Shown here: positions 23,331-46,736 of the stretch, piece after piece
Position numbering within the stretch: the stretch's first letter is position 1
Layout of the letters: the number at the start of each line of letters is the position of its first letter
IMG/VR virus record: IMGVR_UViG_3300022701_000122
Coordinates: 96,001-160,000 of that record
Length of the DNA stretch: 64,000 nt
Strand: one strand, 5' to 3'
From: a virus
Notes under the pieces: model-generated
Seen by the model: the letters and a program-made list of their open reading frames with translations, nothing else
The model's database searches: none
What the model was told of the DNA's origin: nothing
Position numbers and translations under genes: made by a program

Positions 23331-24257
23331 ATGATAAATGTAATAAATGTAAATAAGTTTATTCGTGAAGGAAAATTGAAGGGTCCGATAACGAGTCCTC
23401 AAATATTCATGGGTAAATCTTATACACCACATCCAGAAGGGTTACATAGCGAAGAAATATTTGGATTAGACGGTTCACCGGAAAGAAGAAATTCGATGTC
23501 GTGGATTGATTTGAACTGTAATGTAATACATCCAGTATTTTATGATATTGTATCTAAACAAATAGAGAAAAAAATTGTTAAACTAATATCTAATGAAGAA
23601 ATGTTTACTATAAATGAAGAGACAGGTGAACTTGTTCAAGACGAAGAAGGGGAATTAACTGGATTTTCAAGTTTTGTTAAAAATATAGATAAAATAAAAT
23701 TTAGAAGAGCAGAAGAAGGATCAAAAGGTAATAGAAATAAGGTAGTTAGTGTTTTAGAAAAAAATATTAAGAATAATACATTTTTTATAAATAAATTGAT
23801 AGTTATTGCACCAGACTATAGACCAATATTTTATTCAGAATCGGATGATCGACCAACAATCGATGAGTTAAATGATATATATAAAAGTATTATAATATTA
23901 TCTAATCAATTAAAAAGTGTATCTGGACCATTATTTGACATACTTAGCTATAAAATGCAGATGTATATGAAAGAATTGTTTGAATGGGTTAAATCGAAAG
24001 TGAGTAAAAAACACGGTATAATAAGAAGAATGATGCTTGGTAAACGAGTAGATTTTTCTGCTCGATCTGTTATATCACCAAATCCAAATCTTAAACTTGG
24101 TGAAGTTGGAATACCACTTAATACGGCGTGTGGTTTATTTGAACCAAATTTGATATATGGTATAGTAAATTCTCCGTATTCCAAAGATATACCAGATGAA
24201 TTTCATGAAGAAGTTAAATCATTTTTGGGTAAAGAATTACTTCCTGATTTAACGTAA
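23331..24257 (+). CDS. rpoC: Phage RNA polymerase beta' subunit, N-terminal part
   Basis: EGLHSEEIFG, IDLNCNVIHP, VIAPDYRP, LNDIYKSII, KHGIIRRMMLGKRVDFSARSVISP, GIP...LFEP. Confidence 0.92.
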   Translation: MINVINVNKFIREGKLKGPITSPQIFMGKSYTPHPEGLHSEEIFGLDGSPERRNSMSWIDLNCNVIHPVFYDIVSKQIEKKIVKLISNEEMFTINEETGELVQDEEGELTGFSSFVKNIDKIKFRRAEEGSKGNRNKVVSVLEKNIKNNTFFINKLIVIAPDYRPIFYSESDDRPTIDELNDIYKSIIILSNQLKSVSGPLFDILSYKMQMYMKELFEWVKSKVSKKHGIIRRMMLGKRVDFSARSVISPNPNLKLGEVGIPLNTACGLFEPNLIYGIVNSPYSKDIPDEFHEEVKSFLGKELLPDLT

Positions 24258-24276
24258 TAATAAAGGCGATTAAAAA

Positions 24277-24957
24277 ATGTATATATCAGAACAGTATTTA
24301 AATGAATTATCTTATTTCGTAACGCCATACGTTAAAAAATTAATAAATAATATCCCAACTGTTACTAAAAAAGATTTCATTGGCAATGTTGAGCCAGGAG
24401 ATATTGTTCTTGGATTTTCGCCAAGAGAACTGAAAACGGTAAGAACATCTAAGATAATTGCATCTGTTCAACGATCACCATATACTACTTCAAAAATTGT
24501 TGCTGATAATAAGACTATTATTGGATATGGAGTTAAGGCAGTCAATACAGTTGATGAAAATTTTCTTAGAACATATCAATTAAGAAATTTATTAATTGAA
24601 CGACATGAATTATGTTTAATTAGAATAAATGATGCTACACTTACACAAAAAAGAAAAGCTATAGATTTTTGTTTAAATAGACTTGGACTTGAATATAATT
24701 CTTCTGATTTATTGAAAACTATATGGAATGTTTTTACACGAAAGAAACTATTTCCATTTTTTAGAAATGAACCATTGGAGAAAAAAGAAGTAGATAATTT
24801 ACAAAGACCACTTTTTTGTTCTTCTATTATTGCATTGGGTTATTGGTATGCCGGATATAAACATAAATTTAATGGTAAGAGTCCATACGAACTTTGGCCT
24901 ATTGATTTTTTAATTGATGATAATACAACTGGTGTTTGTAGAGTGGAGCAATTATAA
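24277..24957 (+). CDS. Permuted papain-like (YiiX/YaeF-type) protein with the MYISEQYLNE leader
   Basis: PGDIVL, G.EYN, FCSSII, PYELWP; the expected catalytic His position reads SPYTT. Confidence 0.65.
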   Translation: MYISEQYLNELSYFVTPYVKKLINNIPTVTKKDFIGNVEPGDIVLGFSPRELKTVRTSKIIASVQRSPYTTSKIVADNKTIIGYGVKAVNTVDENFLRTYQLRNLLIERHELCLIRINDATLTQKRKAIDFCLNRLGLEYNSSDLLKTIWNVFTRKKLFPFFRNEPLEKKEVDNLQRPLFCSSIIALGYWYAGYKHKFNGKSPYELWPIDFLIDDNTTGVCRVEQL

Positions 24958-24976
24958 AAAATAAAGGATAATCGTA

Positions 24977-25264
24977 ATGATGGATTTTTTTAAAGAACGT
25001 CACATTTATGATAAGTTAGTAGATGATAACGTATTAGTATGGGAAAGTCATGAAGATGATGTAGATTATTTTGTAAAATGGACGAGAGTAAGTGATAATG
25101 AACACAGAATAAGAGAACATGTGCCAGTTAATAGATGTAATACATTTGGTCAATCAAGATTAAGTTTAAATTTTTTAAAAAAAGGAAAATATCAAATAGA
25201 TATAACTGCATATAGTGAAAAAGGTCTTCAGAGTGATAAGTCATCTATTTTATTGTCAATATAA
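24977..25264 (+). CDS. Fibronectin type III-like protein
   Basis: LVWE...Y.V.W...GKYQIDITAYSEKGLQSDKS. Confidence 0.55.
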   Translation: MMDFFKERHIYDKLVDDNVLVWESHEDDVDYFVKWTRVSDNEHRIREHVPVNRCNTFGQSRLSLNFLKKGKYQIDITAYSEKGLQSDKSSILLSI

Positions 25265-25323
25265 CAAACATTTTTATTAGTTAATGTCAATAGTATAAAC
25301 ACTGGTAAGAAAGGATTAAAGAA

Positions 25324-25728
25324 ATGAAGAAATTAAATTTTACATTAATTTTATTGCCGATTATTGTTGTTTGTTTTATGGTTTCCCCATTATTTGCTGC
25401 AACTGTAACATTAACATGGAATCAACCAAATGAATCGGAAGAAAATATTACGGAATGGGAAGTGTTTTGGGGATACGAGGGTAGAGGTGGAAACGGTGAA
25501 GAGTTTGTATACCAATTTAATCCAACCACAAATTCAGAATTACTTGTGACTGAGAAAACATGCGTTATAGAAAATGTAGATAATGGAAAACAGACATTTT
25601 ATGCAGTTAGAGCCAAATCTGGAGAAGTAAGAAGTTTTTATTCAGAAGAAGTATCAACTACTATTCCATTATCAAGTCCATCTGGAATTCAGATTAATAT
25701 ATCGATAACGATTACAACAAATCCATAA
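25324..25728 (+). CDS. Secreted FN3-like protein with a signal peptide
   Basis: Hydrophobic leader ending PLFA-ATVTLTWN...TFYAVRA...SFYSEEV. Confidence 0.7.
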   Translation: MKKLNFTLILLPIIVVCFMVSPLFAATVTLTWNQPNESEENITEWEVFWGYEGRGGNGEEFVYQFNPTTNSELLVTEKTCVIENVDNGKQTFYAVRAKSGEVRSFYSEEVSTTIPLSSPSGIQINISITITTNP

Positions 25729-25769
25729 ATAATTAATAGTAATTATATAATAAATAAAATGGGTGATTT

Positions 25770-26273
25770 ATGTTTTTATCAGAAGAATGCATCAATGAAA
25801 AAATAAATTTAAGTGAAGGAAAATTTTGGGAATGGTTAAAGAAAGTATTCTATGATCATAATCCAAGACATCCACGAATGGTAGAATTAAATCAAGATTA
25901 TTATGAATATATTTGGCATTGTAAAAGAGATCATCGAGATACAACGATGAAAGCAAATATTCCAATTGGTAATGATACTGAAATAAAAATGGATTACGAT
26001 GAAGAAAATATTCAAAAGACTGCATGTGTTCTTGAAGCACGTATTGAATATTTAGAAGGAATAATAGCTGTTATAGAGGAGGAAGGTATAGAGGAAGTTT
26101 GTCAATATAATAAATATAAATCGGAATGTCACAATGTATCACGTAATCTTCTTAGAGCATCAAAAATACGATTAAAACATGATAAAAAATATCTGCAAGG
26201 AATAAAATCTGGAAGGGTAAAACCAAGACGAGATTTTAAAGCAGAATTAGATAATGCCAAATATATAATTTAA
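25770..26273 (+). CDS. Hypothetical protein with a leader (MFLSEECINE...LSE)
   Basis: Shared N-terminal leader, partly duplicated. Confidence 0.7.
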   Translation: MFLSEECINEKINLSEGKFWEWLKKVFYDHNPRHPRMVELNQDYYEYIWHCKRDHRDTTMKANIPIGNDTEIKMDYDEENIQKTACVLEARIEYLEGIIAVIEEEGIEEVCQYNKYKSECHNVSRNLLRASKIRLKHDKKYLQGIKSGRVKPRRDFKAELDNAKYII

Positions 26274-26290
26274 AATGAGAATAATAAAAA

Positions 26291-26656
26291 ATGTTTATAT
26301 CAGAACAATACTTAACTGAAATGTCTGTTACTGTAAAATATAAACGAAAATTATTTGATGCTATTGTTTGCCCAAATAGTGGCTTATATTTTTTAGCTGA
26401 TTTTAATGATTGGTCTATAGAATGGGCTGAATATGTTGCTCTTGAAGAAGATATAGATAAAATAACTGAAGATCATTGGAAAGTAATTCATTTTATTCGA
26501 AGTTATTACTCTAAATATAATAGACCACCACGTTTAAGAACAATATTTCGTAAAACTGGATTTAAGTTAATGCATATTTATGAACTATTCCCAAATGGTC
26601 CTGGTCGTGGTGCTGGACGAATGGCTGGACTCCCATATAAACAACTTCCGATATAA
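26291..26656 (+). CDS. dsrC: DsrC/TusE-like protein lacking both conserved C-terminal cysteines, with a leader
   Basis: DW..EWAEYVA.EE.I..ITEDHWKVIHFIR.YY...TGFKL..IYELFP.GPG.GA..MAGLP; the tail reads GAGRMAGLPYKQLPI instead of GACKMAGLPKPTGCV. Confidence 0.88.
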   Translation: MFISEQYLTEMSVTVKYKRKLFDAIVCPNSGLYFLADFNDWSIEWAEYVALEEDIDKITEDHWKVIHFIRSYYSKYNRPPRLRTIFRKTGFKLMHIYELFPNGPGRGAGRMAGLPYKQLPI

Positions 26657-26682
26657 TACATAAATAAAAGTTCAGATAATTT

Positions 26683-26725
26683 AATAAAGCGTATCTATTT
26701 TATAATAGATACGCTTTATTTTTTT
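26683..26725 (+). terminator. Intrinsic terminator
   Basis: aataaagcgtatctatt / aatagatacgctttatt perfect stem, then Ts. Confidence 0.9.
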
Positions 26726-26747
26726 AATAAAATTAAGGAAATATGAA

Positions 26748-26762
26748 GGACAAACTACAAAT
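26748..26762 (+). promoter_or_regulatory. Putative promoter motif A
   Basis: ggacaaactacaaat after the terminator. Confidence 0.5.
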
Positions 26763-26831
26763 GAATATATTAATATAATCTAAATAAAATAAGATAATAA
26801 TATATATAGTTACAACAACGCTATTTAAACA

Positions 26832-29615
26832 ATGAGAGGTCTAAATATGGCGGTTGAGAAAATAACAACGGAAGAAGCAAGAAACATATTGTTAATGATG
26901 AGTCAAGGGTATAAAGTTCCAAAAATTGTAAAAGATGTAATATTTAAAGTTGCTAAGACGGAGATAGAAGATAAAGGGAGAGTCGTAATTATAAAACGCG
27001 ACCCAAATGTGGGATCACGTCGTATGCAGGGTATGTATGCTAAAATAGTTGATGGTAGTACTATGGAAATACATCCTGCTATCGTCGGTGGGTTTGGCGC
27101 AGATTTTGATGGTGACACCGTTAGGTGCAGACTTCGATGCACTTGTAAATTTGAGAAAAACGAAACAGGACATACTGTGAATCACGAATGTCATATAGGA
27201 GAAATTTTATCTGTTACTAATGCATTTGAGTTTTACAGTAAAGAAGAAAAAAGAAATGGTATATTGGTATCGAAATATAAGCCTAAAAAAGGTTATACTG
27301 TAAAAATAAAAGCCATTGATATTGAAACTGGCAATGTTGAGATGAAAAATGTTTCTGAATATTCTATCCACGAATTTATAAAATTATACAAGATAGAAGA
27401 TACAAAAGATAGATTTGAAACGATTCATGCTTCTTCAGATCATTCATTAATCGTTTATGACGATAATGATAAACAGATTAAGAAAATTTCTCCTATAGAC
27501 TTGTTGGAAAATCTTAATAATAGATATTTAATCAAAGAAAATAATAATACTAAATCAAATCATTTAAATGATATATCTATACAAAAACTGCAAGAAATGG
27601 GATTAGAATTAATACCAGTTTCAGAAGTTAATATAGAGTATGATCCAGATGAAACAACTGGATATGATTTAACAGTAGATGATTTCTATACATTTGCAAC
27701 TCATGATGGTTTATTTATTCAAGATACAATGGCTGTTTATCATCCAATTTCAAATGAAGCCCAAAAAGAAGTCAAAGATAAAATGATTTCTACATATGGT
27801 ATAGAAGGATTAAATAAACCAAATTTTGAGTTATCAAAAGAAATGTTGACTGGTATTTTCACTCTTACATATGATGAGAATAAAAAATCTCAAATCAAAA
27901 CTATAAAAAAAGCAGATGAAGCGAATACGTTACCCATTGATCAACGTGTTAAATTCAATGATATAGAAACAACTGCTGGTAGAGTTGTATTTAATAGTAA
28001 TTTACCAAAATATATTCCATTTGTTAATGAACCAATTGATAAAAAGAAATTAAATGGAATACTTGCAGGTATATTAGAAAAAAGTATTCAAGACAATGCC
28101 ACTACAATTGATAAATTAATGAGAATTGGATTTTTTTATGCTACTGTATACCCAAAAACTATGTCTATCGATATGATGAAATTAAATCCAAAACTTATTA
28201 AACTTAAACAAAAATTAGCCAATGAAGAAGATATTGCCAGACAAATGGATATTCAGAATGAAATGGAATCTGAAATGTTGAAATATCTTGAAAAAAATCA
28301 TAGCGATATTTTTTATATGGTTAAAAGTGGTGGAGCTAAAGGGAGTAATCAGATACGTCAATTAATGGTTGCGAAGGGATTAACATCAGACCCAATGGGA
28401 AATGTTATACCAGCAATTTCTACCAGTATTTCTGATGGTTATTCTCCAGAAGAATATTTTAAAGTGTCTGCTGCTGGAAGGAAGGGTATAATTGATAGAG
28501 CATTAAACACCGCTAACGGTGGATATGCTTATAGAAAATTTATCTTCTTAATGGCGAATGTTGAAGCAGATATAAATATTGGTGATTGTGATACTCCAAG
28601 AACATTAGATATCAAACTAACTAATGAATTGATGAAAAGAATGCCTGGAAGATATGTATATAATAATAGTAATAAGATAATTCCCATTAATGAAAAAATG
28701 ATTGGAAATGTTATAAAATTAAGATCTCCAATATTCTGTAGATCACAAAAGATTTGTAGAATTTGTTATGGTGATTTATTGAAACAATTGAAGAGTAAAA
28801 ATGTAGGTATTCTGGCTAGTATGACCTGCACCAGCCTTTCAGAGCGCATAATGAAAGCATTTCATCTTGGTGGTGCTGTTATATTAAATAGAGTTGATAT
28901 TATAAATGAAATTATGGATAATTTAAATGATGATATGTTGCAAAAAGTTAAATCATTAGTTCATCAGAAGGAAGATGACTTATTCAATGATTCTGAATTT
29001 GCAACTATAAGAATAGATAAAAATATATATAATTCAACTATACCATCAAATAGAATAGTCGAAGAACATGGTTTTATAAAATTAGTAGTTGGTCATTTTA
29101 CATTATCTTTAGATGGGTTTGAAATAAATGTTGAAATAGAACAACCAGTTAAAATATATATTCCAGAAGAACGAGAAGATAATGATAATATAATATCTTG
29201 TATGTACGCAAAAGGAGATAAATTATTTAGAATTGAATCAATAAGAGAAGATTTTTCAAAATTGGCTCAGAATCTTGATGGGTTGGTTGCTGGAAAGTCT
29301 CCGTGGTCAAGTATTCCCGGTATATATAAGAAATTTTATAAACAGTTAAGTGTTGTTGGATCATGGGATTCAGTTCATTTAGAAACTATTATTTCAAATG
29401 TATTGAGAGCAAAGCGTAATCCACAAAAACCAGCAAGATTGGTTGAACCATTTGATCCAGATTTTTATTCAATTAAGAGATTGCCAGGAATGATGTCATG
29501 GCCCCTTGGCGTAGCCCTCGAAAATTTTTCTGTGGGGTTGCAAAGTGGGCTATGTGAGGATCGTGCTCCATCATCTCAAATTGAAAAAGTATTATTTGGA
29601 GAACCATTGTATTAA
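26832..29615 (+). CDS. rpoC: Phage RNA polymerase beta' subunit, C-terminal (catalytic) part, intein-containing
   Basis: KRDP, GADFDGD|TMAV, TTAGRV, SGGAKGS, GRKGIIDRALNTANGGYAYRK, DCDT, CRS..ICRICYG, NVGILAS, VHLE. The probable start is 26847. Confidence 0.93.
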   Translation: MRGLNMAVEKITTEEARNILLMMSQGYKVPKIVKDVIFKVAKTEIEDKGRVVIIKRDPNVGSRRMQGMYAKIVDGSTMEIHPAIVGGFGADFDGDTVRCRLRCTCKFEKNETGHTVNHECHIGEILSVTNAFEFYSKEEKRNGILVSKYKPKKGYTVKIKAIDIETGNVEMKNVSEYSIHEFIKLYKIEDTKDRFETIHASSDHSLIVYDDNDKQIKKISPIDLLENLNNRYLIKENNNTKSNHLNDISIQKLQEMGLELIPVSEVNIEYDPDETTGYDLTVDDFYTFATHDGLFIQDTMAVYHPISNEAQKEVKDKMISTYGIEGLNKPNFELSKEMLTGIFTLTYDENKKSQIKTIKKADEANTLPIDQRVKFNDIETTAGRVVFNSNLPKYIPFVNEPIDKKKLNGILAGILEKSIQDNATTIDKLMRIGFFYATVYPKTMSIDMMKLNPKLIKLKQKLANEEDIARQMDIQNEMESEMLKYLEKNHSDIFYMVKSGGAKGSNQIRQLMVAKGLTSDPMGNVIPAISTSISDGYSPEEYFKVSAAGRKGIIDRALNTANGGYAYRKFIFLMANVEADINIGDCDTPRTLDIKLTNELMKRMPGRYVYNNSNKIIPINEKMIGNVIKLRSPIFCRSQKICRICYGDLLKQLKSKNVGILASMTCTSLSERIMKAFHLGGAVILNRVDIINEIMDNLNDDMLQKVKSLVHQKEDDLFNDSEFATIRIDKNIYNSTIPSNRIVEEHGFIKLVVGHFTLSLDGFEINVEIEQPVKIYIPEEREDNDNIISCMYAKGDKLFRIESIREDFSKLAQNLDGLVAGKSPWSSIPGIYKKFYKQLSVVGSWDSVHLETIISNVLRAKRNPQKPARLVEPFDPDFYSIKRLPGMMSWPLGVALENFSVGLQSGLCEDRAPSSQIEKVLFGEPLY
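27117..27725 (+). mobile_element. Atypical mini-intein (203 aa; Thr1...Gln-Asp, Thr+1) immediately after DFDGD
   Basis: Insert TVRCR...HASSDHSL...GYDLTVDDFYTFATHDGLFIQD; removal restores ADFDGDTMAV. Confidence 0.85.
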
Positions 29616-29622
29616 AAATTAC

Positions 29623-29636
29623 CATATATATTAAAT
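29623..29636 (+). promoter_or_regulatory. Putative promoter motif B
   Basis: catatatattaaat between rpoC-C and the nuclease gene. Confidence 0.45.
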
Positions 29637-29696
29637 AATAAAGAGATGTTCTCATCATTATTTTTTCATTGTTTAATATATAAGGAGAGTTATATT

Positions 29697-31988
29697 ATGA
29701 CTGTAAAATGTGAAATTTGTGGAAGAGAATTTGAAAAAGTATTGGGTTTATCGAGACATATTGCTCATGCTATTAAAAATGATAATGTACGACATAATGG
29801 GATAACTGTAAGAGAATATTATGATAAATATATAAAAATTGATGAGAATGAAGGGATATGTCCAACTTGTGGATCAGAAACAGATTTTAAATCTATGGGG
29901 CGAGGTTATTCTAAATATTGTCCAAATAGAAAATGTTTAAGAATGAGTAAAGAAACTATAAATAAAAGAAAACAAACTAATTTAGAAAAATATGGTGTTG
30001 AAAACCCATTATCAAATAAAGAAGTTCAAGAAAAACGAAAACAAACATTTATTAAAAATTATGGAGTAGATAACCCATTAAAAAATAAAGATATTCAAAA
30101 AAAAGTAAAAAGGACTTGTTTAGAAAAATATGGTGTTGAAAACCCATTATCAAATAAAGAAGTTCAAGAAAAACGAAAACAAACAATGGTTAGACGATAT
30201 GGTGTTGAAATATCGATTCAAAATAAAGAAATAAAAGATAAAATAAAGAAAACTAATATAGAGCGATATGGTGTAGATAATCCTGGAAAGTCTAAACAAG
30301 TTCAAGAAAAAATGAAGAAGACTAATATAGAACGACATGGTGTAGAAAATGTGTTTATGATAGATTCTTTTCAAGAAAAAAGAAAGAAATCAATGATTAA
30401 AAAATATGGTGCAGAATATCCAATTCAAAATAAAGAAATAAAAAATAAAATAAAGAAAACTAATATAGATCGATATGGTGTAGAAAACCCATTACAAAAT
30501 AAAGAAATAAAAGATAAAATAAAGAAAACTAATTTAGAACGGTATGGTACTGAATTTGGTCTTTCTTCAGAAGAAGTAAGAAAAAAAATTGAACAAACAA
30601 ATACGGATAGATATGGTGTTAAGTCAACTCTTTCAGTTCCAGAAGTTCAAGAAAAAATAAGACAGACTAATATTAAAAGATATGGTGTAGAATATCCGAT
30701 TCAGAATAAAGAAATAAAAGATAAAATAAAGAAAACTAATTTAGAGCGATATGGTGTAGATAATGTGTTTATGTCTGACAAAATAAAGAAGCGAATTAAA
30801 GAAATTAATTTAGAACGATATGGTATAGAATATCCAGCTAAAAACAAAGAAATTTATGATAAAGTTAGAAAAACAAATATGAAGAGATATGGAGTAAGAA
30901 ACTATTCACAATCAAACGAATATAAAGAAAAAATTCAAAAATATTGGTTTAACAGATTAATGAGTAATAAAACTATATTATCCAAAGTTGAACCATTATT
31001 TACTATAGATGATTTTGATGGTTTTTCAGATGGTCAAGAGTACACATTTAAATGTAAAAAATGTGATTCTATTTTTAATGGTAGAATAACAAATGGGTTA
31101 ATTCCAAGATGTTATACATGTTATCCGTCTCATGGTACATCAATAGGTGAAAGAGAAATATCTGAATTTTGTGAACAATATACAGAAGTTATAAATAATA
31201 GTAGATCTATATTAGAAGATGGAAAAGAAATAGATATATTTTTACCAGAATTTAATATTGGTATAGAATTTGATGGGTTATACTGGCATAGTGAATATAT
31301 TATAAATAAAGATTATCATCTTAATAAAACACTAAATGCTTTAGCTGTTGGGATTAATCTTATTCATATTTTTGAAGATGAGTGGTATTCCAAATCAGAA
31401 ATAATAAAGTCTATGTTGCTTTATAGAATGGGTAAAATAGAAAATAGAATATATGGAAGAAAATGTGAAATAAGAGAAGTATCTAAAAAAGATGAAATAA
31501 CATTTTTAGATAATAATCATATAAGCGGATACGTTGGATCAAAAATAGCTATTGGATTATATTATGAAGATGAACTTATATCAATAATGACATTTGGTAA
31601 ATCAAGATTTAATAAGAAATATAATTATGAACTAATACGATTTTGCAATAAATTATTTACTACTGTTATTGGTGGAGCATCAAAATTATTCAAATATTTT
31701 ATTTCAAATTATTCTATTTATTCTATTATTTCATATTGTAATATGAGATTTTCTACAGATGGCTTTTATTCAAAAATTGGGTTTGATTTAATTGATATTA
31801 GTAGACCAAATTATTTTTACGTTAATAGTAGTAATATACGTGAATCGAGAATTAAATATCAAAAACACAAATTAAAAGATAAATTAGAGACTTTTGATAA
31901 TAAATTAACAGAGTATGAGAATATGCAATTAAATGGATATTATAGAATTTATGATTGTGGAAATTTAGTTTATACATGGGAGAAGTGA
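29697..31988 (+). CDS. Free-standing Hef-like PD-(D/E)XK endonuclease: Zn-finger module, 14 x 23-aa repeats, Zn ribbon, nuclease, GNAT-like tail
   Basis: CEIC..H..H/CPTC module; KKTNLERYGVENP repeats; EIDIFLPEFNIGIEFDGLYWH; LIHIFEDEW. The ATG at 29697 has an aaggag RBS (track start 29646). Confidence 0.8.
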   Translation: MTVKCEICGREFEKVLGLSRHIAHAIKNDNVRHNGITVREYYDKYIKIDENEGICPTCGSETDFKSMGRGYSKYCPNRKCLRMSKETINKRKQTNLEKYGVENPLSNKEVQEKRKQTFIKNYGVDNPLKNKDIQKKVKRTCLEKYGVENPLSNKEVQEKRKQTMVRRYGVEISIQNKEIKDKIKKTNIERYGVDNPGKSKQVQEKMKKTNIERHGVENVFMIDSFQEKRKKSMIKKYGAEYPIQNKEIKNKIKKTNIDRYGVENPLQNKEIKDKIKKTNLERYGTEFGLSSEEVRKKIEQTNTDRYGVKSTLSVPEVQEKIRQTNIKRYGVEYPIQNKEIKDKIKKTNLERYGVDNVFMSDKIKKRIKEINLERYGIEYPAKNKEIYDKVRKTNMKRYGVRNYSQSNEYKEKIQKYWFNRLMSNKTILSKVEPLFTIDDFDGFSDGQEYTFKCKKCDSIFNGRITNGLIPRCYTCYPSHGTSIGEREISEFCEQYTEVINNSRSILEDGKEIDIFLPEFNIGIEFDGLYWHSEYIINKDYHLNKTLNALAVGINLIHIFEDEWYSKSEIIKSMLLYRMGKIENRIYGRKCEIREVSKKDEITFLDNNHISGYVGSKIAIGLYYEDELISIMTFGKSRFNKKYNYELIRFCNKLFTTVIGGASKLFKYFISNYSIYSIISYCNMRFSTDGFYSKIGFDLIDISRPNYFYVNSSNIRESRIKYQKHKLKDKLETFDNKLTEYENMQLNGYYRIYDCGNLVYTWEK
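29961..30926 (+). repeat. 14 tandem 69-nt (23-aa) coding repeats
   Basis: Consensus xKxKxTNxERYGVxNxxQNKEIK; two units share an exact stretch of about 66 nt (near 29981 and 30120). Confidence 0.92.
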
Positions 31989-31993
31989 TTTAA

Positions 31994-32149
31994 ATGGAAA
32001 ACGTAAATAAATATTTACTCGAAGATAAAAATAAAGATGAAAAGGATATAAGATATATAGTTAAAGAAATGATTCTTCTTAATTATAGAATGTCTGTATC
32101 ATTTATGAATTTTCAACTTAAGCAACTTAAATTATTTTTTAATAAATAA
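31994..32149 (+). CDS. Small hypothetical protein (51 aa, not in track)
   Basis: MENVNKYLLEDK...FNK* fills the gap between neighbouring genes. Confidence 0.4.
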   Translation: MENVNKYLLEDKNKDEKDIRYIVKEMILLNYRMSVSFMNFQLKQLKLFFNK

Positions 32150-32166
32150 AAAGGATGTGATTTGCT

Positions 32167-33066
32167 GTGACACAAGGTAGTTATAAGAAACGTAATCCCG
32201 AAGATGTTGTTCATAAATGTAGAGTTTGTGGATATGAAGCAACTAATTGGACTGATTTTAAGAAACATGTAACAAGATGGACAAAATATCATCCAACTCT
32301 TGAAAAATATTATATCCGATATATGAAGAACGATGGAGAAGGAATATGTGCTATTGATGGTTGTAATAATGAAACTGAATTTATAACAATTAATGGTGAT
32401 AAATCATATAAATTATATTGCAATGAACACTTTCCAAAACATGTTCAGATAAGAACTGATGAAGAAATAGAGCATAATAAGAAAGTATGTCAAATATGCG
32501 GAAAGGAAAATATAAAGAAGATTGGTGGTCATACATATCTATGTCATAAAATTACTGCTAAAGAATACTATGATAAATATTTAACGAAGTATGAAGATGA
32601 GAAAATATGTTCAGTATGTGGTCGAGATGTTACTTTTACTGGTAGAGTAACGGCAGGATATTATAGGACATGTACTCATCTTGGAGTATGTGCTAAATTA
32701 GATAAAGAGTACAAAAAGAAACAAAAATCTGTTTCATTAAAAAAATATGGAGTAGATAATCCTGCAAAATCTCCTGTAATAATTGAAAAAATAAAAAGAT
32801 CTACTAAAGAGAATAAGGATAAAGAGTTACGTAGATTAAAACTAAAGCTATCTAAACCAAATATATATGTATTAAATATAAAAGAATTTGCTGATAAACA
32901 TGATATTATAGAATCAAAAAGAAAAAATAGTAAAGAAGAATTAGAATGTATTATTAAAGAAGTTGATGATGATAATTCTGAATTAGAATGTAGTGATTCG
33001 AATGGAATAATTATAAAAAAATCAATAAAAAAAGATAAGACCATCTTCAATTTTGGAAAATTCTAA
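32167..33066 (+). CDS. Protein with two Zn-finger modules and one 23-aa repeat, no nuclease domain
   Basis: CRVC..H..H-YY-CAIDGC and CQIC..H..H-YYDKY-CSVC...GYYRTC; KKYGVDNPAKS; GTG start. Confidence 0.75.
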   Translation: MTQGSYKKRNPEDVVHKCRVCGYEATNWTDFKKHVTRWTKYHPTLEKYYIRYMKNDGEGICAIDGCNNETEFITINGDKSYKLYCNEHFPKHVQIRTDEEIEHNKKVCQICGKENIKKIGGHTYLCHKITAKEYYDKYLTKYEDEKICSVCGRDVTFTGRVTAGYYRTCTHLGVCAKLDKEYKKKQKSVSLKKYGVDNPAKSPVIIEKIKRSTKENKDKELRRLKLKLSKPNIYVLNIKEFADKHDIIESKRKNSKEELECIIKEVDDDNSELECSDSNGIIIKKSIKKDKTIFNFGKF

Positions 33067-33071
33067 CTGTT

Positions 33072-33263
33072 ATGAGAAATAAAGATATAAAGAATCTAAT
33101 AAAAAATAATATTACATGTAATAAATGTATTGGGTGTGGAAAAAAGTTTGTCACATTTGAAGATTATATGGATCATATGGAAAGATTTAAACAACGAGTT
33201 AAATTAATAATAGTTCTTAAAAAAATAATATTGAAAGCGATTGATTCTAATGATGATAACTAA
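33072..33263 (+). CDS. Small Zn-finger-like protein
   Basis: CIGCGKKFVTFEDYMDH. Confidence 0.55.
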   Translation: MRNKDIKNLIKNNITCNKCIGCGKKFVTFEDYMDHMERFKQRVKLIIVLKKIILKAIDSNDDN

Positions 33264-33579
33264 AGAAATTCAATACACTGAAAATGTACCTACATTCAAA
33301 ACTCGACAGTTAACTTTTCCAATATATTTAATATATGATATGACTAATAAAGATAATCCAAATGAACAAGAATGTTGTCTTTATTGGAGAATAGATGAGT
33401 TTTTAAATTGTACTAAAATATATATAAATGATTGTTTTGATAGCAAATCTATTACATTAGAATTTGAGCAAATAGACGGAACAAAATTAATAGAAATGAT
33501 GAATGAATATAATGAAACAAATGAATGTGATTTCAGATCAGCAATATGTGAATTAGAGAATAAGATGTTAAATTTGTGA
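33241..33579 (+). CDS. Hypothetical protein
   Basis: 112-aa ORF. Confidence 0.55.
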   Translation: MILMMITKEIQYTENVPTFKTRQLTFPIYLIYDMTNKDNPNEQECCLYWRIDEFLNCTKIYINDCFDSKSITLEFEQIDGTKLIEMMNEYNETNECDFRSAICELENKMLNL

Positions 33580-33581
33580 AA

Positions 33582-33753
33582 AAAACAAGCATTTACTTAT
33601 TACCCGAATAATTCGGTAAATGCTCTGGCGCACATACTTCACGCCAATTTCTCGTATAGGACCATGTACTCTCTGATATCCATGATCCCATTCGGGTTTA
33701 CGGTCAGGGCACCAATCTTGACAACGGGTGCTTTTATTAACTACATATATGTA
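33582..33753 (-). ncRNA. Unassigned structured RNA, probably on the minus strand
   Basis: Minus-strand hairpins gcacc/ggtgc, ggatcatg/catggtcc, ggcgtg/tgcgcc and agcatttac/gtaaatgct followed by Ts; upstream TATATATAT-N8-TACAT resembles motif B. Confidence 0.5.
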
Positions 33754-33843
33754 TCAGAGCCATATATATAGCACACTATAGAAAGTACAAATTTTCTATA
33801 GTGTTATTACTTAATATATAGTGAATTTATAAGGAGAAATTGT

Positions 33844-34107
33844 ATGAATAAGTTAAAATGTAGAGAGTGTGGAAAAGAGTTTAAAAATGTAGCTGCTACA
33901 AGTAGACATGTAACAAAAGAACATAATATGAAAGTTAAAGATTATTATGATAAATATTTTAAAGAAAATGGAGAAGATAAGTGTAAAAACGATCTTTGTG
34001 TTGGAGGTGGAAAGAACAGTTTTCTATCATTGGGTAGAGGGTACAATAATTGCTGTTGTACTAAGTGTGGATCAATATGGGGATTAAGTCGAAATAAGAA
34101 AGGGTAG
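33844..34107 (+). CDS. Stand-alone Zn-finger module (homologous to the nuclease N-terminus)
   Basis: CREC..H...H-YYDKY-C....C-FLSLGRGY..CC. Confidence 0.8.
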   Translation: MNKLKCRECGKEFKNVAATSRHVTKEHNMKVKDYYDKYFKENGEDKCKNDLCVGGGKNSFLSLGRGYNNCCCTKCGSIWGLSRNKKG

Positions 34108-34111
34108 ATTT

Positions 34112-34366
34112 ATGAATGATAAAACAAAGTGTAAACTATGTGAAAAAAAATTTGTAAATATATCAGAAATCAGTAAGCATATAATAAACGATCATAATAT
34201 TTCAGTTAAAGAATATTATGATCGTTTTTATAAGGAAGATGGAGAAGGAGAGTGTGCAAATATCATATGTGGAAAAGAAACAAGATTTTTGTCATTAGGT
34301 CGTGGATATAATTTATGTTGTAGTACTGGTTGTGGAATGGATTATGGTCGCTGGCAAAAAAACTAA
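34112..34366 (+). CDS. Stand-alone Zn-finger module
   Basis: CKLC..H...H-EYYDRFY-C...IC-ETRFLSLGRGYNLCC. Confidence 0.8.
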   Translation: MNDKTKCKLCEKKFVNISEISKHIINDHNISVKEYYDRFYKEDGEGECANIICGKETRFLSLGRGYNLCCSTGCGMDYGRWQKN

Positions 34367-34390
34367 ACCTTATTGGAGGACAAATTTTAA

Positions 34391-34639
34391 ATGATATGTC
34401 AGATATGCAAAAAGAGATATGATGATTCATATTGGTTTTTATATCATTTAACTAAAGGTTACAATGAGGGTACTCATTGTAGTCATCAAGAATATTATGA
34501 CAGATTCATGGCAATTGATGGGAATGATGTTTATTGCATTCGAAAAGGATGTGATAACTTATGTAAACTAATAGATGCTATATCTGGATATGAAGATTAT
34601 TGTTCAAAAGAATGTGAACAAAAAGATAAAAGGGTGTAA
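34391..34639 (+). CDS. Stand-alone Zn-finger module (divergent)
   Basis: CQIC..H...H-EYYDRF-C..KGC-GYEDYCSKEC. Confidence 0.75.
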   Translation: MICQICKKRYDDSYWFLYHLTKGYNEGTHCSHQEYYDRFMAIDGNDVYCIRKGCDNLCKLIDAISGYEDYCSKECEQKDKRV

Positions 34640-34645
34640 TAAATT

Positions 34646-36610
34646 ATGTATACATACTTGTCAGAAGAATACATTGAAGAATTTACTATGTTTTCTCCAG
34701 AAATAAAAGAAGCTGGTAAATATATTACTGTTTCTAAATTTCCAGTAAACATATTTAAAGCTGATCTAAAAAGGCAATATAATACTATAAAAATTGCCAA
34801 TGTTTTTGATCATGCTTTCTTATTCTTTGGAACTGGTAAATTAAGAATTCATAAATTCTTCTTACCAGAATTTGTATATCTTCTGACAATATTACCACCT
34901 TATCCCATCTATTCAAAAGTAAGAGAACTTATATATAGAGATACATGGATGGCAAATACTGTTAAGAATTTTTCATCCATAATTGATTATTCGGCTATAT
35001 CTAAAATGCTATTTACTCCAATGTCTCATCAGAAGAAGTTTATTGATTTATATCAAGATAGAAAACAAAAATTTCTTCTTAATGGATATATATTGGCATT
35101 TGACATGGGCCTCGGAAAAACTGCCACATCTTTATTTTTAATGGAAGGGTTACATAAAGATGTAGTAATCATCATTGCTCCAAAAAGTACCTTGTTACCC
35201 GTTTGGAGCAATGAGATTGATAATATATTTAAAGATCATAAAGAAAAATGGCTACCATTTGATAGACCAAAACCAGCAGATTTTTTTATTGTTAATTATG
35301 AATCCATAGATAAATTAAAAAATGTTTTACCATATTTAAGAAGAGCAAAAAATGTTGGTATAGTTGTTGATGAATGTCATAATTTCAGAAATGCTAAAAC
35401 AAAGAGAGTTCAAAATCTAAAGAAAATAGCCGATTTAACAAATTGTAAAGATATATTGTTAATGAGTGGTACTCCAATTAAAGCATTGGGAACTGAAATT
35501 ATACCAGTTCTTGAACTCATTGATCCATTTTTCGATGATGAGAGCAAAGTTGTATTCAAAAAAGCTTTTGGTGTAAATGTGCCAGTTGCACTCGATATTG
35601 TTAAGAATAGACTTGGTATAATGATGCATAGGAAGTTGAAGACAGAAGTTCTTAAGCTTCCAAAAAAATTTATAAAAGAAATAAAAATAAAAATAAGTAA
35701 TGGGATGGATTTTACTCTTGTATCTGTTAAGAAACAAGTTATGGATTTTATAGTTGAAAGAAAAGCATATTATGCCAAAAATATGTACAAATATAGAGCA
35801 GATTACAATGAATGTATTGTGTATCTTAGATCACAAATACCATATAATGATCCAGATTTTGTAGAATATAGAAAAATAGTCGATTATCTTACTAAAAAAG
35901 GTTATGATCGACAGAATCAAAAAGTTGTAGAAAAAGTTGCTTGGGCTAATAATTACGAAAAAGAAGTATTACGTCCATTATTAACATCAGAACTAAAAAA
36001 GAAATTTGATAAATCTAAATCTGCTGTAAAATATGTAGATTTGAAGATAATGGGTGAAGTCATAGGTGGATTGTTATCAAGACTTAGAGTAGCGATGTTT
36101 AAAGAGATGATAAATAATAGTCCAACTTGTAAAATAATAAATGATGCTAAGAAAAAAACAGTTATGTTTACAACTTATGTGGACGTTTTAAAAGAAGCAA
36201 ATAGTTATTTAAGAAGAAAATGTAAAAAAGATCCAATATTGATTTATGGAGATACAAGTAAGAATATAAAAACTGAATTAAGAAAATTTAAAGCCGATGA
36301 GACAATTAATCCACTTGTTGCAACAATTCAAACACTTTCAACTGGTGTTACGCTAGTTGAAGCAAATACTGTCATCTTTATAAATAAGCCTTGGAGAGAT
36401 GCAGATATGCAGCAAGCTACAGATCGAATATACCGCATTGGTCAGACGGATGATGTTTACATATATACATATACATTAGATACTGGAAATGAACCAAATC
36501 TTTCAACTCGAATGGATGATATATTAGCATGGTCTAAAGAGATGTTTGAAGGGATAGTTGGTGAAAAGGAAGCCGAACAAGTTATAAAAAGATTAGCTTA
36601 TAGAGGATAG
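34646..36610 (+). CDS. SNF2-family helicase with a leader-like N-terminus (YLSEEYIEE)
   Basis: HQ, AFDMGLGKT, NYE, VDECH, SGTP, STGVTLVEAN, QATDRIYRIGQ. Confidence 0.92.
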   Translation: MYTYLSEEYIEEFTMFSPEIKEAGKYITVSKFPVNIFKADLKRQYNTIKIANVFDHAFLFFGTGKLRIHKFFLPEFVYLLTILPPYPIYSKVRELIYRDTWMANTVKNFSSIIDYSAISKMLFTPMSHQKKFIDLYQDRKQKFLLNGYILAFDMGLGKTATSLFLMEGLHKDVVIIIAPKSTLLPVWSNEIDNIFKDHKEKWLPFDRPKPADFFIVNYESIDKLKNVLPYLRRAKNVGIVVDECHNFRNAKTKRVQNLKKIADLTNCKDILLMSGTPIKALGTEIIPVLELIDPFFDDESKVVFKKAFGVNVPVALDIVKNRLGIMMHRKLKTEVLKLPKKFIKEIKIKISNGMDFTLVSVKKQVMDFIVERKAYYAKNMYKYRADYNECIVYLRSQIPYNDPDFVEYRKIVDYLTKKGYDRQNQKVVEKVAWANNYEKEVLRPLLTSELKKKFDKSKSAVKYVDLKIMGEVIGGLLSRLRVAMFKEMINNSPTCKIINDAKKKTVMFTTYVDVLKEANSYLRRKCKKDPILIYGDTSKNIKTELRKFKADETINPLVATIQTLSTGVTLVEANTVIFINKPWRDADMQQATDRIYRIGQTDDVYIYTYTLDTGNEPNLSTRMDDILAWSKEMFEGIVGEKEAEQVIKRLAYRG

Positions 36611-36614
36611 ATTA

Positions 36615-37217
36615 TTGAAAATAGATGTGAAAGTTATTGGACATCAAAGATGTGGGAATAATTATTTAGCTAATTTAATAAAATTAAATTTTGGAGATGA
36701 TGTAGAAGTACAAAGTGATTTACACGGGATACTTAGCAGAGACAAAGTACAATATTGTGTTTATTATGTATATATTGTTAGAAGAATTGGACCAGTTATG
36801 AAATCTATGTATAAATTAAGAAATAGATTTGGTTTGAACGTTTCTTCTTATAATGAATTTAAAAAAACAAGATACAGAGATATGTGGTCTGAAAATATAA
36901 AATCGAAAAATGTTATAATAGATGGAAATAATAAATCTGATTATGTTAGTGATAGATTTAAGAAAAATAAACATACTCCTATACAATGGTATAACAAACA
37001 TGTATCGGATTGGGTTGATTTAAAAAGTGAATTCAAAAATATATGCATTATTCATTATGAAGATTTAATAATTAATTTTAATGGAACTATGAATAGAATA
37101 TCTGATTTTTTTGGTTTAGGAAAAAGAAAGAGTTTTAAAAATATAGATAAAAAAGTTGGTCCAAGAATAATTGATGATGAAGTAATAAATAAAAAATACA
37201 TAGATAAAATGAGGTAA
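36615..37217 (+). CDS. Sulfotransferase-domain protein 1
   Basis: 5'-PSB-like HQRCGNNYL, 3'-PB-like YIVR....MKSMY, IHYEDL; TTG start. Confidence 0.7.
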   Translation: MKIDVKVIGHQRCGNNYLANLIKLNFGDDVEVQSDLHGILSRDKVQYCVYYVYIVRRIGPVMKSMYKLRNRFGLNVSSYNEFKKTRYRDMWSENIKSKNVIIDGNNKSDYVSDRFKKNKHTPIQWYNKHVSDWVDLKSEFKNICIIHYEDLIINFNGTMNRISDFFGLGKRKSFKNIDKKVGPRIIDDEVINKKYIDKMR

Positions 37218-37221
37218 TTTA

Positions 37222-37842
37222 ATGCGAGAAATTGTAAAAGTATTTGGACATCAGCGAAGTGGAAACCATTATTTGAATCAGTTACTGAAATTAAATTTTG
37301 AAAAATTTATTAATATTAAAATAGAAACAAATCATAAATTACTTAAACCAGAAGATATAGATAAAAATATAAGTTATATTTATATAATTAGAAATAGAGA
37401 AGCTGTTTTGAAATCATTATTCAGAATGAAAGATAGTTATGGATTAGATATTGATAGTTATGAAAATTTTATATCAACAAGATATTGTGATATGTGGTCT
37501 GAAAATATTAAATCAAAAAGTAGAATGATTAGAAGAATTGATTCATCTCTTAATGAAACTGTAGAACATACAAGTGAGTGGTTTAGAAATATAAAACATA
37601 ATCCAATAAAATGGTATAACATTCATTGTAAGCATTGGGTTGATTTAAATCATAAATTTGATAATATTTATATAATCTATTATGAAGAAATTATAAAGCA
37701 TTTTAATGACACACTTGGAAATATAAGAAAATTTTTAGGAATAATTGAGAAAATAAAATTCAAAGATGTAAAGCTTAAAATTGGTCCAAGCAAAATTAAT
37801 GATAATAAAATTCATAATGATTATATCAAAAAGGCATCATAA
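37222..37842 (+). CDS. Sulfotransferase-domain protein 2 (paralog)
   Basis: HQRSGNHYL, YIIRNREAVLKS, IYYEEI; shares RYxDMWSENIKSK with the previous gene. Confidence 0.7.
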   Translation: MREIVKVFGHQRSGNHYLNQLLKLNFEKFINIKIETNHKLLKPEDIDKNISYIYIIRNREAVLKSLFRMKDSYGLDIDSYENFISTRYCDMWSENIKSKSRMIRRIDSSLNETVEHTSEWFRNIKHNPIKWYNIHCKHWVDLNHKFDNIYIIYYEEIIKHFNDTLGNIRKFLGIIEKIKFKDVKLKIGPSKINDNKIHNDYIKKAS

Positions 37843-44573: not shown

Positions 44574-46736
44574 ATGAAAGAAATTAGTTTAACATGTCAA
44601 GTATGTGGAAAAGTAACTAAAACTGAAAGTGGTCTTGGATTACATATTTCAAGATCTAAAAAAGATCATCCTACCATTAAAGAATATTTTGATCTTTATA
44701 TCAAAGAAGAACAAGATGGAATTTGTTCTTTAGATGGCTGTGAAAATAAAACCAAGTTTAGAAATTTGGTAAAAGGGTATGGTCCTTATTGTTCTCCAAA
44801 ATGCATGAATAATTCACCGGAGAGAAAGAAAGCTATAAAGGAAGGAGTAAGGAAAAAGTATGGTGTTGATAATGTATTTCAATCAAAGAAGATTAAAGAA
44901 AAAACTAAACAAATGTATTTAGAAAAATATGGTGTAGAACATAATTCTCAACTTAAAGAAGTAGTTCAAAAAAGAAGAAATACAATGTTAAGAAGATATG
45001 GTGAAACTCATTATTTAAAAACAGAAGAGGGAATGGATCGAGTTAGAAAAACCAATTTAGAAAAATATGGTACTGAATATGTGTTACAAAATGAAGATAT
45101 TAAAGCTAAAGCAGATGCTACTGTTAAAGAGAAATACGGTGTTGATAATGTATTTCAAAATGAAGATATAAAAGAAAAATCAAGAGAAACGATACAAGAG
45201 AAATATGGTGTTGATAATGTATCTCAAAATGAAAATATAAAAAATAAGAAAAGAGAAACAAATCTTAGAAGACATGGTGTTCAACAACCTTTTCAATCTG
45301 AAAAAATATGGAACAAAGTTAAACAAACTTGGTTAAGTAAACATGGATTTGATAATATATCTAAACTTGGTGAGACAAAAGATAAAAAGAAAAAAACATC
45401 TTTAAAAAATCATGGTGTAGAACACCCTCTTCAATCAGAACAAGTTAAATCAAAAATGAAACAAACTAATTTAGAAAGATATGGTGCTGTTGCACCTACT
45501 CAAAATGAAGGTGTAATGGCTAAAATGAGAGAAAATAATTTGGATAAATATGGAGTAGAGTATGTATCACAAGTAGAAGAATTTAAACAAAAAAAGATAG
45601 AAACCAATCTTGAAAGATATGGTTGTAAAGTACCAACTCAGAATAAAGAAATTATGAGTAAAGTAATAAGAACACAACATAAGAAATTTTTTAATGAATT
45701 ATTAAATGGTAATAGATTAAATGATTTATGTATTCCTGATTTTGGATTGGATGATTATAAAGGAATAAAATGTAAATACAATTGGATATGTAAAAAATGT
45801 AGTAATAAATTTAAAGATCATTTATATAATAATCTTATTCCAAGATGCCCTATCTGTTTCCCTATATATTCTTCTATGTCAGAAATAGAAGTTCTTGAAT
45901 TTGTTAAATCTATTTATGATGGAGAAATAATTCCTGGTGATAGATCCATATTAAAAAACAGAGAACTTGATATATATCTTCCAGAATTAAAATTGGCTAT
46001 AGAGTTTAATGGTTTATATTGGCATAGTGAAGGAAGAGGAAAAGACAAAAATTACCACATCGATAAAACAAAAAGATGTGCAGAGAAGGGTATTCAGCTA
46101 ATACATATATTTGAAGATGAATGGAATTATAAACAAGATATCGTTAAATCAATATTAATAGCGAAAATGGGATTATGTAAAAATAGAATATACGCAAGAA
46201 AATGTGAAGTTCATATTGTAACAAATAACAATGATATATGGGAATTTTATAATGATAATCATATTCAGGGTCCAATTCATGGGAATACAACTTTTTCTTT
46301 AAAATATGAAAATGAATATGTTGCAATGATGACAATTGGAAAGAGTAGATTTCATAAAGAAGAAATTTATGAAATTCTAAGATTTTGTGTCAAAAAAGAT
46401 ACTATAGTTGTTGGTGGGTTATCAAAATTAATGAAACAAGTAAGACTTCATCAATTTGGAAAAGTTATCAGTTATGTTGATTTGAGATATGGAAATGGGA
46501 ATGGTTACGAATTAGCAGGAATGAAATTTGTTAAATATACTCAGCCAAATTATTTCTATGTTCGTAATGGTGATTTCATTAGAGAATCAAGAATTAAATA
46601 TCAGAAACATAAATTAGAGAAACAATTAGAAATATTCGATCCAGAATTAACTGAATGGGAAAATATGCAATTAAATGATTTTGATAGAGTATATGATTGT
46701 GGGAATAAATTATATGAATTAGTAATAGAGAAATAA
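44574..46736 (+). CDS. Second Hef-like repeat-array endonuclease (12 x 23-aa repeats)
   Basis: Same architecture as 29697; ELDIYLPELKLAIEFNGLYWH, LIHIFEDEW. ATG at 44574 (track TTG 44562). Confidence 0.8.
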   Translation: MKEISLTCQVCGKVTKTESGLGLHISRSKKDHPTIKEYFDLYIKEEQDGICSLDGCENKTKFRNLVKGYGPYCSPKCMNNSPERKKAIKEGVRKKYGVDNVFQSKKIKEKTKQMYLEKYGVEHNSQLKEVVQKRRNTMLRRYGETHYLKTEEGMDRVRKTNLEKYGTEYVLQNEDIKAKADATVKEKYGVDNVFQNEDIKEKSRETIQEKYGVDNVSQNENIKNKKRETNLRRHGVQQPFQSEKIWNKVKQTWLSKHGFDNISKLGETKDKKKKTSLKNHGVEHPLQSEQVKSKMKQTNLERYGAVAPTQNEGVMAKMRENNLDKYGVEYVSQVEEFKQKKIETNLERYGCKVPTQNKEIMSKVIRTQHKKFFNELLNGNRLNDLCIPDFGLDDYKGIKCKYNWICKKCSNKFKDHLYNNLIPRCPICFPIYSSMSEIEVLEFVKSIYDGEIIPGDRSILKNRELDIYLPELKLAIEFNGLYWHSEGRGKDKNYHIDKTKRCAEKGIQLIHIFEDEWNYKQDIVKSILIAKMGLCKNRIYARKCEVHIVTNNNDIWEFYNDNHIQGPIHGNTTFSLKYENEYVAMMTIGKSRFHKEEIYEILRFCVKKDTIVVGGLSKLMKQVRLHQFGKVISYVDLRYGNGNGYELAGMKFVKYTQPNYFYVRNGDFIRESRIKYQKHKLEKQLEIFDPELTEWENMQLNDFDRVYDCGNKLYELVIEK
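44829..45656 (+). repeat. 12 tandem 69-nt (23-aa) coding repeats
   Basis: e.g. KTNLEKYGTEYVLQNEDIK, QTNLERYGAVAPTQNEGVM. Confidence 0.92.

Follow-up and report, generated by a model that had tools for sequence, protein, structure and literature searches.

What does a long and perfectly regular stack of short repeats do in a phage endonuclease: does it read the target DNA unit by unit, or does it hold DNA while other parts of the protein choose where to cut? This question is raised by a gene at positions 29697-31988 of the 64,000-nucleotide (nt) stretch of viral DNA analysed here and referred to as the window (positions 96,001 to 160,000 of IMG/VR record IMGVR_UViG_3300022701_000122). The encoded protein joins an N-terminal zinc module, fourteen 23-residue units, a nuclease and a C-terminal domain. 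The answer that we favour, with a probability of roughly 0.6, is that the gene specifies a free-standing homing endonuclease of the Hef type whose repeat arm holds DNA and provides affinity and reach, not a code.

The source record is an IMG/VR virus of 182,757 nt with about 27% G+C and a CheckV completeness of 58%, evidently the partial genome of a jumbo phage. The open reading frame (ORF) spans 29646-31988 on the plus strand. Its likely start is the ATG at 29697, which yields 763 amino acids (aa) plus a stop codon ending at 31988, and the Joint Genome Institute (JGI) gene call on a sister contig starts at the identical ATG. The full-length AlphaFold2 model, computed from an input alignment of 100 homologs, has a mean predicted local distance difference test score (pLDDT) of 91.2.

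The nuclease belongs to the Vsr-like EDxHD family. The profile of the 100 homologs matches PDB entry 3r3p, the catalytic domain of I-Bth0305I, with E = 1.5e-6. Fold comparison of residues 480-582 with VIA gives Z scores of 12.6 (3hrl), 10.6 (3r3p) and 10.1 (the Vsr-DNA complex 1cw0), and the Foldseek match to 3r3p has a template modelling (TM) score by target of 0.73. D513, H531, H541 and K544 do not vary among these homologs, and at least 90% of them retain E511 and E524. D513 and H531 align with D196 and H213 of I-Bth0305I, and E524 with the Glu of IEVNG; the position of D222 is occupied here by the invariant His541, a family-level variation. By these alignments the catalytic residues are intact. 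Taylor et al. (2011) placed Hef-type enzymes together with I-Bth0305I in this family and described the latter as a homodimer with a footprint of about 60 bp and a specificity centred on the 14 bp at the cut, where flanking changes matter little (PMC3239194). By analogy with I-Bth0305I, the present enzyme would cleave as a dimer and take its sequence preference mostly from the bases around the cut.

Searches with tblastn recover homologs in 441 phage records, with up to 24 places in a single record. The matches include genes annotated as Hef or homing endonuclease in the Campylobacter CP220 group, Klebsiella RaK2, Dickeya LIMEstone (F-LimIII) and huge metagenomic phages. Query coverage reaches 90% in the 'Hef' of Campylobacter phage vB_CcoM-IBB_35 (E = 5e-66) and 93% in F-LimIII. 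Fold matches in BFVD agree with this family and add giant-virus proteins from Klosneuvirus, Marseillevirus and an iridovirus, which belong to the same general family. A review reports cleavage of nrdB by the homing endonuclease Hef of phage U5 (PMC2988022). F-CphI was also considered as a relative and rejected, since it uses an Endo VII motif. On these matches the gene is a further Hef-like free-standing homing endonuclease, a known kind. The original prediction, made from the bare sequence, had called it Hef-type, and this assignment is borne out by the PHROG 3339 match, the 3r3p-like nuclease fold and the position beside a conserved RNA polymerase (RNAP) β′ gene. The parts that it named are all present (zinc module, 14 units of 23 aa, CxxC ribbon, the nuclease motif EIDIF...IEFDGLYWH and a C-terminal domain), as are the location after rpoC, directly 3′ of the RNAP β′ gene at 26832-29615, and the paralog beginning at 44574, which is 39% identical.

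The array is built of 14 head-to-tail units of exactly 23 aa, with [YH]G at unit positions 16-17 in all 14. The residues that the original prediction had read after this YG are found as listed. In the DNA the array appears as 12 in-register copies at a 69-nt spacing, and Tandem Repeats Finder reports higher-order periods of 207 and 276 nt, corresponding to 3 and 4 units. Judged by the matches to Pfam DUF7487 (E = 2e-76; 257 bits against a gathering cut-off of 27) and to PHROG 3339 (E = 1e-173), the array lies far beyond chance. Of the 220 positions of the DUF7487 model, this protein matches the repeat part only (1-124). AlphaFold2 models each unit as a helix of 15, a loop of 4 and a turn of 3 residues, pLDDT values being mostly 88-94, and a degenerate 15th helix at aa 406-428 caps the stack. 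The Cys4 ribbon that follows is modelled with strands at 449-453 and 459-462, and the alignment consensus keeps CxxC...IPRCxxCxP. The unit, a helix plus a short turn, presumably resembles the 24-residue leucine-rich-repeat-variant solenoid.

The array carries a net charge of +36 (isoelectric point 9.9), single units ranging from +1 to +5. Across 1096 units drawn from 120 homologs, K7, T11, Y16 and G17 hardly vary, and conservation is also strong at K9, L13 and K/R15. The invariant residues suggest backbone contacts, and the array probably binds DNA, as judged from its charge, its conserved residues and its portability. The N-terminal half of the protein would accordingly be a DNA-holding arm in which a zinc module resembling Ros/MucR precedes the basic stack of fourteen helical units. 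The face formed in each unit by Lys7, Thr11, Lys/Arg15 and Tyr16-Gly17 would lie along the DNA backbone, giving affinity, a long footprint and a set distance from the zinc-finger anchor to the cut site. The semi-variable loop residues would add modest sequence preference only, and specificity would come mainly from the nuclease centre and the zinc modules. We infer that the likely target lies in or near the adjacent RNAP β′ gene of phages that lack the endonuclease gene. The gene would persist as a selfish element: genomes without it would be cut, and repair would copy it in.

The same repeat is found well beyond this gene. Searched alone, the array matches 11,922 cluster representatives at E <= 1e-10, and 19,510 when the threshold is relaxed to E <= 1e-3. 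In 70 of 120 shorter relatives the repeats are joined to another type of nuclease tail, about 110 aa long and marked by a D..EVK motif. This PD-(D/E)XK tail (DIYIP...IIEVKSTWT; for example in the metagenomic proteins P0126, P0224 and P0143) is the second half of the DUF7487 model. Within a further 118 cluster representatives, the array is joined to the Vsr-like nuclease, with or without a Mom domain, in 79, to the D..EVK tail in 26 (2 carry both) and to unidentified partners in 15; a Pfam scan of ten array proteins with such partner domains gave no named family. An automatic ESM Atlas cluster label, which is a label only, reports DUF7487 together with a DNA methylase (PF01555) in 15% of the members of one cluster. 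Repeats fused to at least two types of nuclease agree with the idea of a portable module for DNA binding.

The number of units is variable or has been misassembled in one of two assemblies. The longest exact repeat in the array is 67 nt (29981-30047 = 30119-30185), at an offset of 138 nt or two units; the shared stretch of about 66 nt noted in the original prediction is therefore real. In a second assembly (JGI 3300022696, contig Ga0248654_100149, 64,607 nt), the protein form P0002 has 717 aa and 12 units. This contig matches window positions 23697-37988 over 14.2 kb with zero mismatches and lacks only the 138 nt between the 67-nt copies. Either 12- and 14-unit alleles coexist in the phage population, or one assembly has collapsed or expanded the repeat. 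Units 5, 8 and 12 share 83-88% DNA identity, which points to earlier block duplications, and unit number among homologs ranges from 4 to 17. The original prediction had proposed that array length changes by unit duplication; an indel of two units exactly at the 67-nt repeat supports this as duplication or deletion. In other phage homing endonucleases, in-frame indels arise through recombination between intragenic repeats (PMC10448857). Unit number would shift here in blocks by such repeat recombination, changing the reach of the arm with no rewriting of a code. The natural 12/14-unit pair would offer a ready test of units as a ruler against units as readers.

The surroundings of the gene carry further evidence for homing. 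The record holds three full copies: the present gene, the paralog downstream of the β-like gene (Table 1), and a third on the minus strand outside the window (G000:C1:22816-24693), which encodes 625 aa with 5 units and lies downstream of a 484-aa ORF. Their DNA is 64-71% identical, and at this level of identity we found no recent gene conversion between the three. Paralog identity is 38-40% in the N-terminal half, which contains the arm, and 49-52% in the catalytic half. The two window copies directly follow the RNAP β′ (26832-29615) and β (40352-44461) genes, and the best metagenomic homolog, P0003 of another phage, directly follows a β gene 50% identical to that of the window.

The zinc module gives weak Pfam matches to zf-C2HC_2, zf-C2H2_4 and Zn_ribbon, and ROS_MUCR is matched by homologs and by a neighbouring small ORF. 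Its profile finds 11 copies in the 183-kb record. Downstream of the endonuclease gene, five copies lie in four small ORFs: 32167-33066 contains two modules and one 23-aa unit, and single modules occur at 33841-34071, 34109-34336 and 34391-34624. These ORFs look like decayed endonuclease copies, the alternative being free-standing zinc-finger proteins. Several diverged copies, zinc-module fragments and placement after RNAP genes together make up the usual signature of free-standing homing endonuclease genes. Separately, an ORF outside the window (G000:C1:1970-3361, minus strand) comprises three tandem zinc modules and nothing else recognisable.

The C-terminal domain has a GNAT fold, and phage Mu Mom (8bv8) is its top Foldseek match in the PDB (E = 2.4e-4). 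VIA gives Z = 9.4 to 8bv8 over 146 aligned residues, compared with 9-10 for generic GNATs. The Pfam Mom family (PF25680) scores 18.4 bits here, below its cut-off of 27.1, and several homologs carry a precomputed PF25680 match. In a moderate-confidence hhalign alignment with Mu Mom (55% probability, E = 1.2e-4), the essential R111, S124, D149 and R151 of Mom align with R648, S662, N682 and R684. In the 100 homologs R648 is conserved in 99%, S662 in 85%, an Asp at 682 in 89% and R684 in 76%. The equivalent of D149 is thus commonly Asp, also in the paralog at 44574-46736, and Asn682 in this copy. The domain may modify or bind DNA, and the conservation of a Mom-like tail raises the question whether selfish nucleases chemically mark DNA.

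The reading of the array as a DNA-holding arm has to be weighed against three others. The original prediction proposed recognition unit by unit, similar to that of transcription activator-like (TAL) effectors or zinc fingers: each 23-aa unit would read one or a few bases through its variable residues, and the order and number of units would spell the target. A strictly constant unit length (963 of about 1040 spacings among homologs are exactly 23), a unit number that varies several-fold and a module portable between enzymes would all suit such a reader, but unit order is not recognisably kept between homologs 40-45% identical, even beside the same kind of gene; when this protein, its paralog and P0003 are compared unit by unit, the diagonal is no better than the off-diagonal. 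Likewise, the loop positions 20-22, together with 8 and 12, vary moderately and hold polar or aromatic residues (N/Y/H/S/C/Q), as a base reader might, but the 1096 units show 338 different triplets at 20-22 and therefore no small alphabet. Entropy is 2-3 bits at most unit positions, with peaks of about 3 bits at positions 2, 8, 10 and 20-22, so that the variation is spread over many positions and no hypervariable position stands out on a fixed scaffold. The arm does evolve faster than the catalytic half; in 20 independent close-ortholog pairs, however, the fastest positions are 2, 6, 10 and 14, a single helix face rich in K/E/D/Q, as for a solvent face and not typical of base reading, and the loop after YG, which the original prediction had stressed, evolves only at the array average. 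The flanking arms of I-Bth0305I, moreover, add little specificity (PMC3239194). The proposal is thus not supported by this diffuse variation, and we regard it as improbable; it is unsupported rather than refuted, because no target site is known. In its most far-reaching form, the 23-residue units would be a new portable and programmable DNA-recognition repeat. Every unit would touch a small, constant number of base pairs through its semi-variable polar positions (12, 20-23 and 1 of the next unit), and unit shuffling would give nucleases and methylases of phages and giant viruses new targets. This we consider very improbable.

A further possibility is that the protein is a weapon resembling a restriction-modification system: the Mom-like domain would mark the phage's own adenines, and the nuclease, on a non-specific arm, would degrade unmodified DNA of the host or of competitors, with no homing involved. 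The fusion of nuclease and Mom-like domain is conserved, including the four aligned positions, and several copies occur per jumbo phage; the alignment on which these positions depend, however, has only the probability given above, this copy has Asn at the position of D149, and many relatives bear the array and no Mom domain. A published proposal along these lines exists (PMC7824862), whereas single intergenic genes beside conserved core genes, with decayed fragments, form the pattern of homing endonucleases, and U5 Hef is reported to act as one (PMC2988022). We judge this explanation unlikely. Alternatively, the array might not bind DNA at all and serve as a rigid spacer, an oligomerisation scaffold or a binder of protein or RNA (for example tRNA) attached to a nuclease. 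The model is indeed a confident, regular helical stack without a recognisable DNA-binding motif, and searches of Pfam and of PDB sequences found no relative of known function and no solved structure that shares the array sequence. A Pfam scan of the array alone (E <= 10) returned DUF7487 and compositional noise, with no match to NUMOD, HEAT or leucine-rich-repeat variants, and an ESM Atlas search with the array found nothing outside the repeat family; phmmer against the PDB matched engineered OspA repeats at E = 0.02, a similarity that we attribute to K/E-rich composition and discard. In the fold searches with the full-length model, the match lists were taken up by the GNAT and nuclease domains. 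Mu Mom uses Gly-tRNA as its co-substrate (PMC13219725), which makes an RNA-binding arm conceivable; against this, the same array occurs on nucleases without a Mom domain, and the identified partner domains all act on DNA (15 of the 118 representatives have unidentified partners). The strong positive charge with its invariant Lys/Thr/Lys-Arg stripe, and the location between two zinc modules of a DNA-cutting enzyme, also speak for DNA as the ligand. An array that does not bind DNA is accordingly, in our estimate, highly unlikely.

Several observations count against our preferred reading of a homing endonuclease with a DNA-holding arm. In the 20 close-ortholog pairs the array diverges faster than the rest of the protein (29% against 22%). 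This faster N-terminal divergence, seen in paralogs and orthologs alike, means that the arm could carry more specificity than we allow. Iyer et al. (2021) read the fusions of a restriction endonuclease (REase) with Mom as restriction-modification-like rather than as homing enzymes (PMC7824862). The kinship with U5 Hef rests on other genes annotated as Hef and not on the U5 Hef sequence itself. To find a close relative without the endonuclease gene, window positions 26000-34000 were compared by megablast with 50,697 phage records, which gave no match; viral contigs likewise yielded no relative of the β′ protein, and hence no empty site or target. As no endonuclease-free relative was found, neither a target site nor a homing event can be demonstrated for this gene. 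At the RaK2 locus the endonuclease gene is present in 9 of 9 close relatives, and no empty allele is seen. What the analysis establishes is the architecture, the folds, the conserved residues, the family, the genomic position and the variation in array length; DNA binding by the array, dimeric cleavage, the target and homing itself are what we infer.

The features discussed are collected in Table 1.

Table 1. Positions of the endonuclease gene, its parts and related elements in the window
Feature	Position	Strand	Basis or remark
AT-rich motif TATATATTAAATA, candidate phage promoter element	29625..29637	+	upstream of endonuclease gene
Ribosome-binding site AAGGAG	29682..29687	+	read from sequence; 9 nt before ATG 29697
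Complete coding sequence of Hef-type endonuclease	29697..31988	+	PHROG 3339 'homing endonuclease', E = 1.2e-173
Zinc module, aa 1-83: C2H2-like finger, YYDKY helix, Cys4 ribbon	29697..29945	+	weak Pfam matches
Array of 14 tandem 23-aa (69-nt) units, aa 84-405	29946..30911	+	Pfam DUF7487, model positions 1-124
138-nt (2-unit) block bounded by exact 67-nt repeat	29981..30118	+	absent from second assembly
Degenerate 15th helix, linker and Cys4 zinc ribbon, aa 406-480	30912..31136	+	CxxC at 453-456 and 472-475
Vsr-like (EDxHD-family) nuclease, aa 481-585	31137..31451	+	profile and fold matches
Mom-like GNAT-fold domain, aa 586-763	31452..31985	+	Foldseek, VIA
Small ORFs with zinc module, no nuclease	32167..34624	+	profile E from 2e-8 to 2e-17
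Paralog, 720 aa, 12 units	44574..46736	+	PHROG 3339, E = 1.4e-150; directly downstream of RNAP β-like gene 40352-44461

Upstream of each endonuclease gene in the window lies a copy of the AT-rich motif TATATATTAAATA. It has four exact plus-strand copies in the window (18603, 29625, 44469 and 54257). Allowing one mismatch raises the count to 14 where 5.0 would be expected, and 0 of 100 shuffles reach 14. Scans for sigma-70 promoters and for terminators showed no enrichment. The motif is a candidate promoter element of a transcription system of the phage's own.

The neighbouring polymerase genes have features of their own. Split RNAP β/β′-like genes are located at 23331-24257, 26832-29615 and 40352-44461, as in phiKZ-like jumbo phages with their own multisubunit polymerases. 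The β′-like ORF at 26832-29615 contains a 204-aa insert (window positions 27117-27728, aa 96-299) placed exactly between the catalytic DFDGD motif and MAVYHP. The insert has a weak match to Pfam Intein_splicing (E = 2.4e-5, below the cut-off), and its ends are unusual for an intein: it starts with TVRC and ends with FIQDT, and the His-Asn pair is missing. The insert contains no endonuclease domain; the free-standing endonuclease gene follows about 2 kb downstream. Elsewhere in the window, a DsrC-like gene and two adjacent sulfotransferase-like genes (26291-26656 and 36615-37842; Pfam families taken from the identical sister contig) may serve the jumbo phage in auxiliary sulfur metabolism.

Among known systems, the closest to the present gene are the Hef-like genes: the 'Hef' of CP220 and IBB_35, F-LimIII of Dickeya phage LIMEstone1, RaK2 ORF039 and their counterpart in PA5oct. 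They cover 33-94% of the query at 30-40% identity, fall in the same PHROG and share the order of zinc module, repeats, Vsr-like nuclease and GNAT tail; they too are free-standing beside conserved genes and multicopy. The present copy differs in having 14 (or 12) units, near the top of the range of 4-17, and in following the RNAP β′ gene of an uncultured low-GC jumbo phage. I-Bth0305I (3R3P) has the same nuclease fold, the same catalytic Asp, Glu and His positions and a DNA-binding region N-terminal to the nuclease. In contrast, it is intron-encoded, carries two NUMOD2/helix-turn-helix motifs instead of 23-aa repeats and has no Mom domain. With Mu Mom (8BV8), the best Foldseek match of the C-terminal domain, the family would share, by the moderate-confidence alignment, conserved equivalents of R111, S124, D149 and R151, but here the domain is one part of a larger protein with a nuclease and a repeat arm, scores below the PF25680 cut-off and carries Asn where Mom has D149. 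Fusions of a nuclease with Mom in jumbo phages have been described before (PMC7824862).

As for the arm, the NUMODs of I-TevI and I-HmuI and the repeated zinc fingers of T5orf172 enzymes (Barth et al. 2023) likewise tether a nuclease to DNA-binding modules and show indels at intragenic repeats (PMC10448857). Those modules are separate folded beads on linkers, whereas the present arm is an uninterrupted helical stack without detectable NUMOD similarity. The repeats of TAL effectors and BurrH are also fixed-length tandem helical repeats in a DNA-targeting protein, with a unit number changed by recombination. Units of TAL effectors are two-helix hairpins of 33-35 aa, nearly identical except for two hypervariable residues. 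In the present array the units have 23 aa, with one long helix and a short turn, are about 35-60% alike and show no evident correspondence between residues and bases; they do not resemble a series of nearly uniform units that differ at one or two hypervariable residues with few alternatives.

Literature searches found no paper that mentions DUF7487, and the papers on 'Hef-like' enzymes do not treat the repeats; the repeat arm itself appears undescribed. As one more Hef-type homing endonuclease the gene adds little in our view. What stands out from the known systems is its uncharacterised and widespread arm, a 23-residue repeat that is spread over about 12,000 protein clusters from phages and giant viruses, together with at least two kinds of nuclease, and that would, if the array binds DNA in a regular manner, be an unstudied DNA-binding scaffold.

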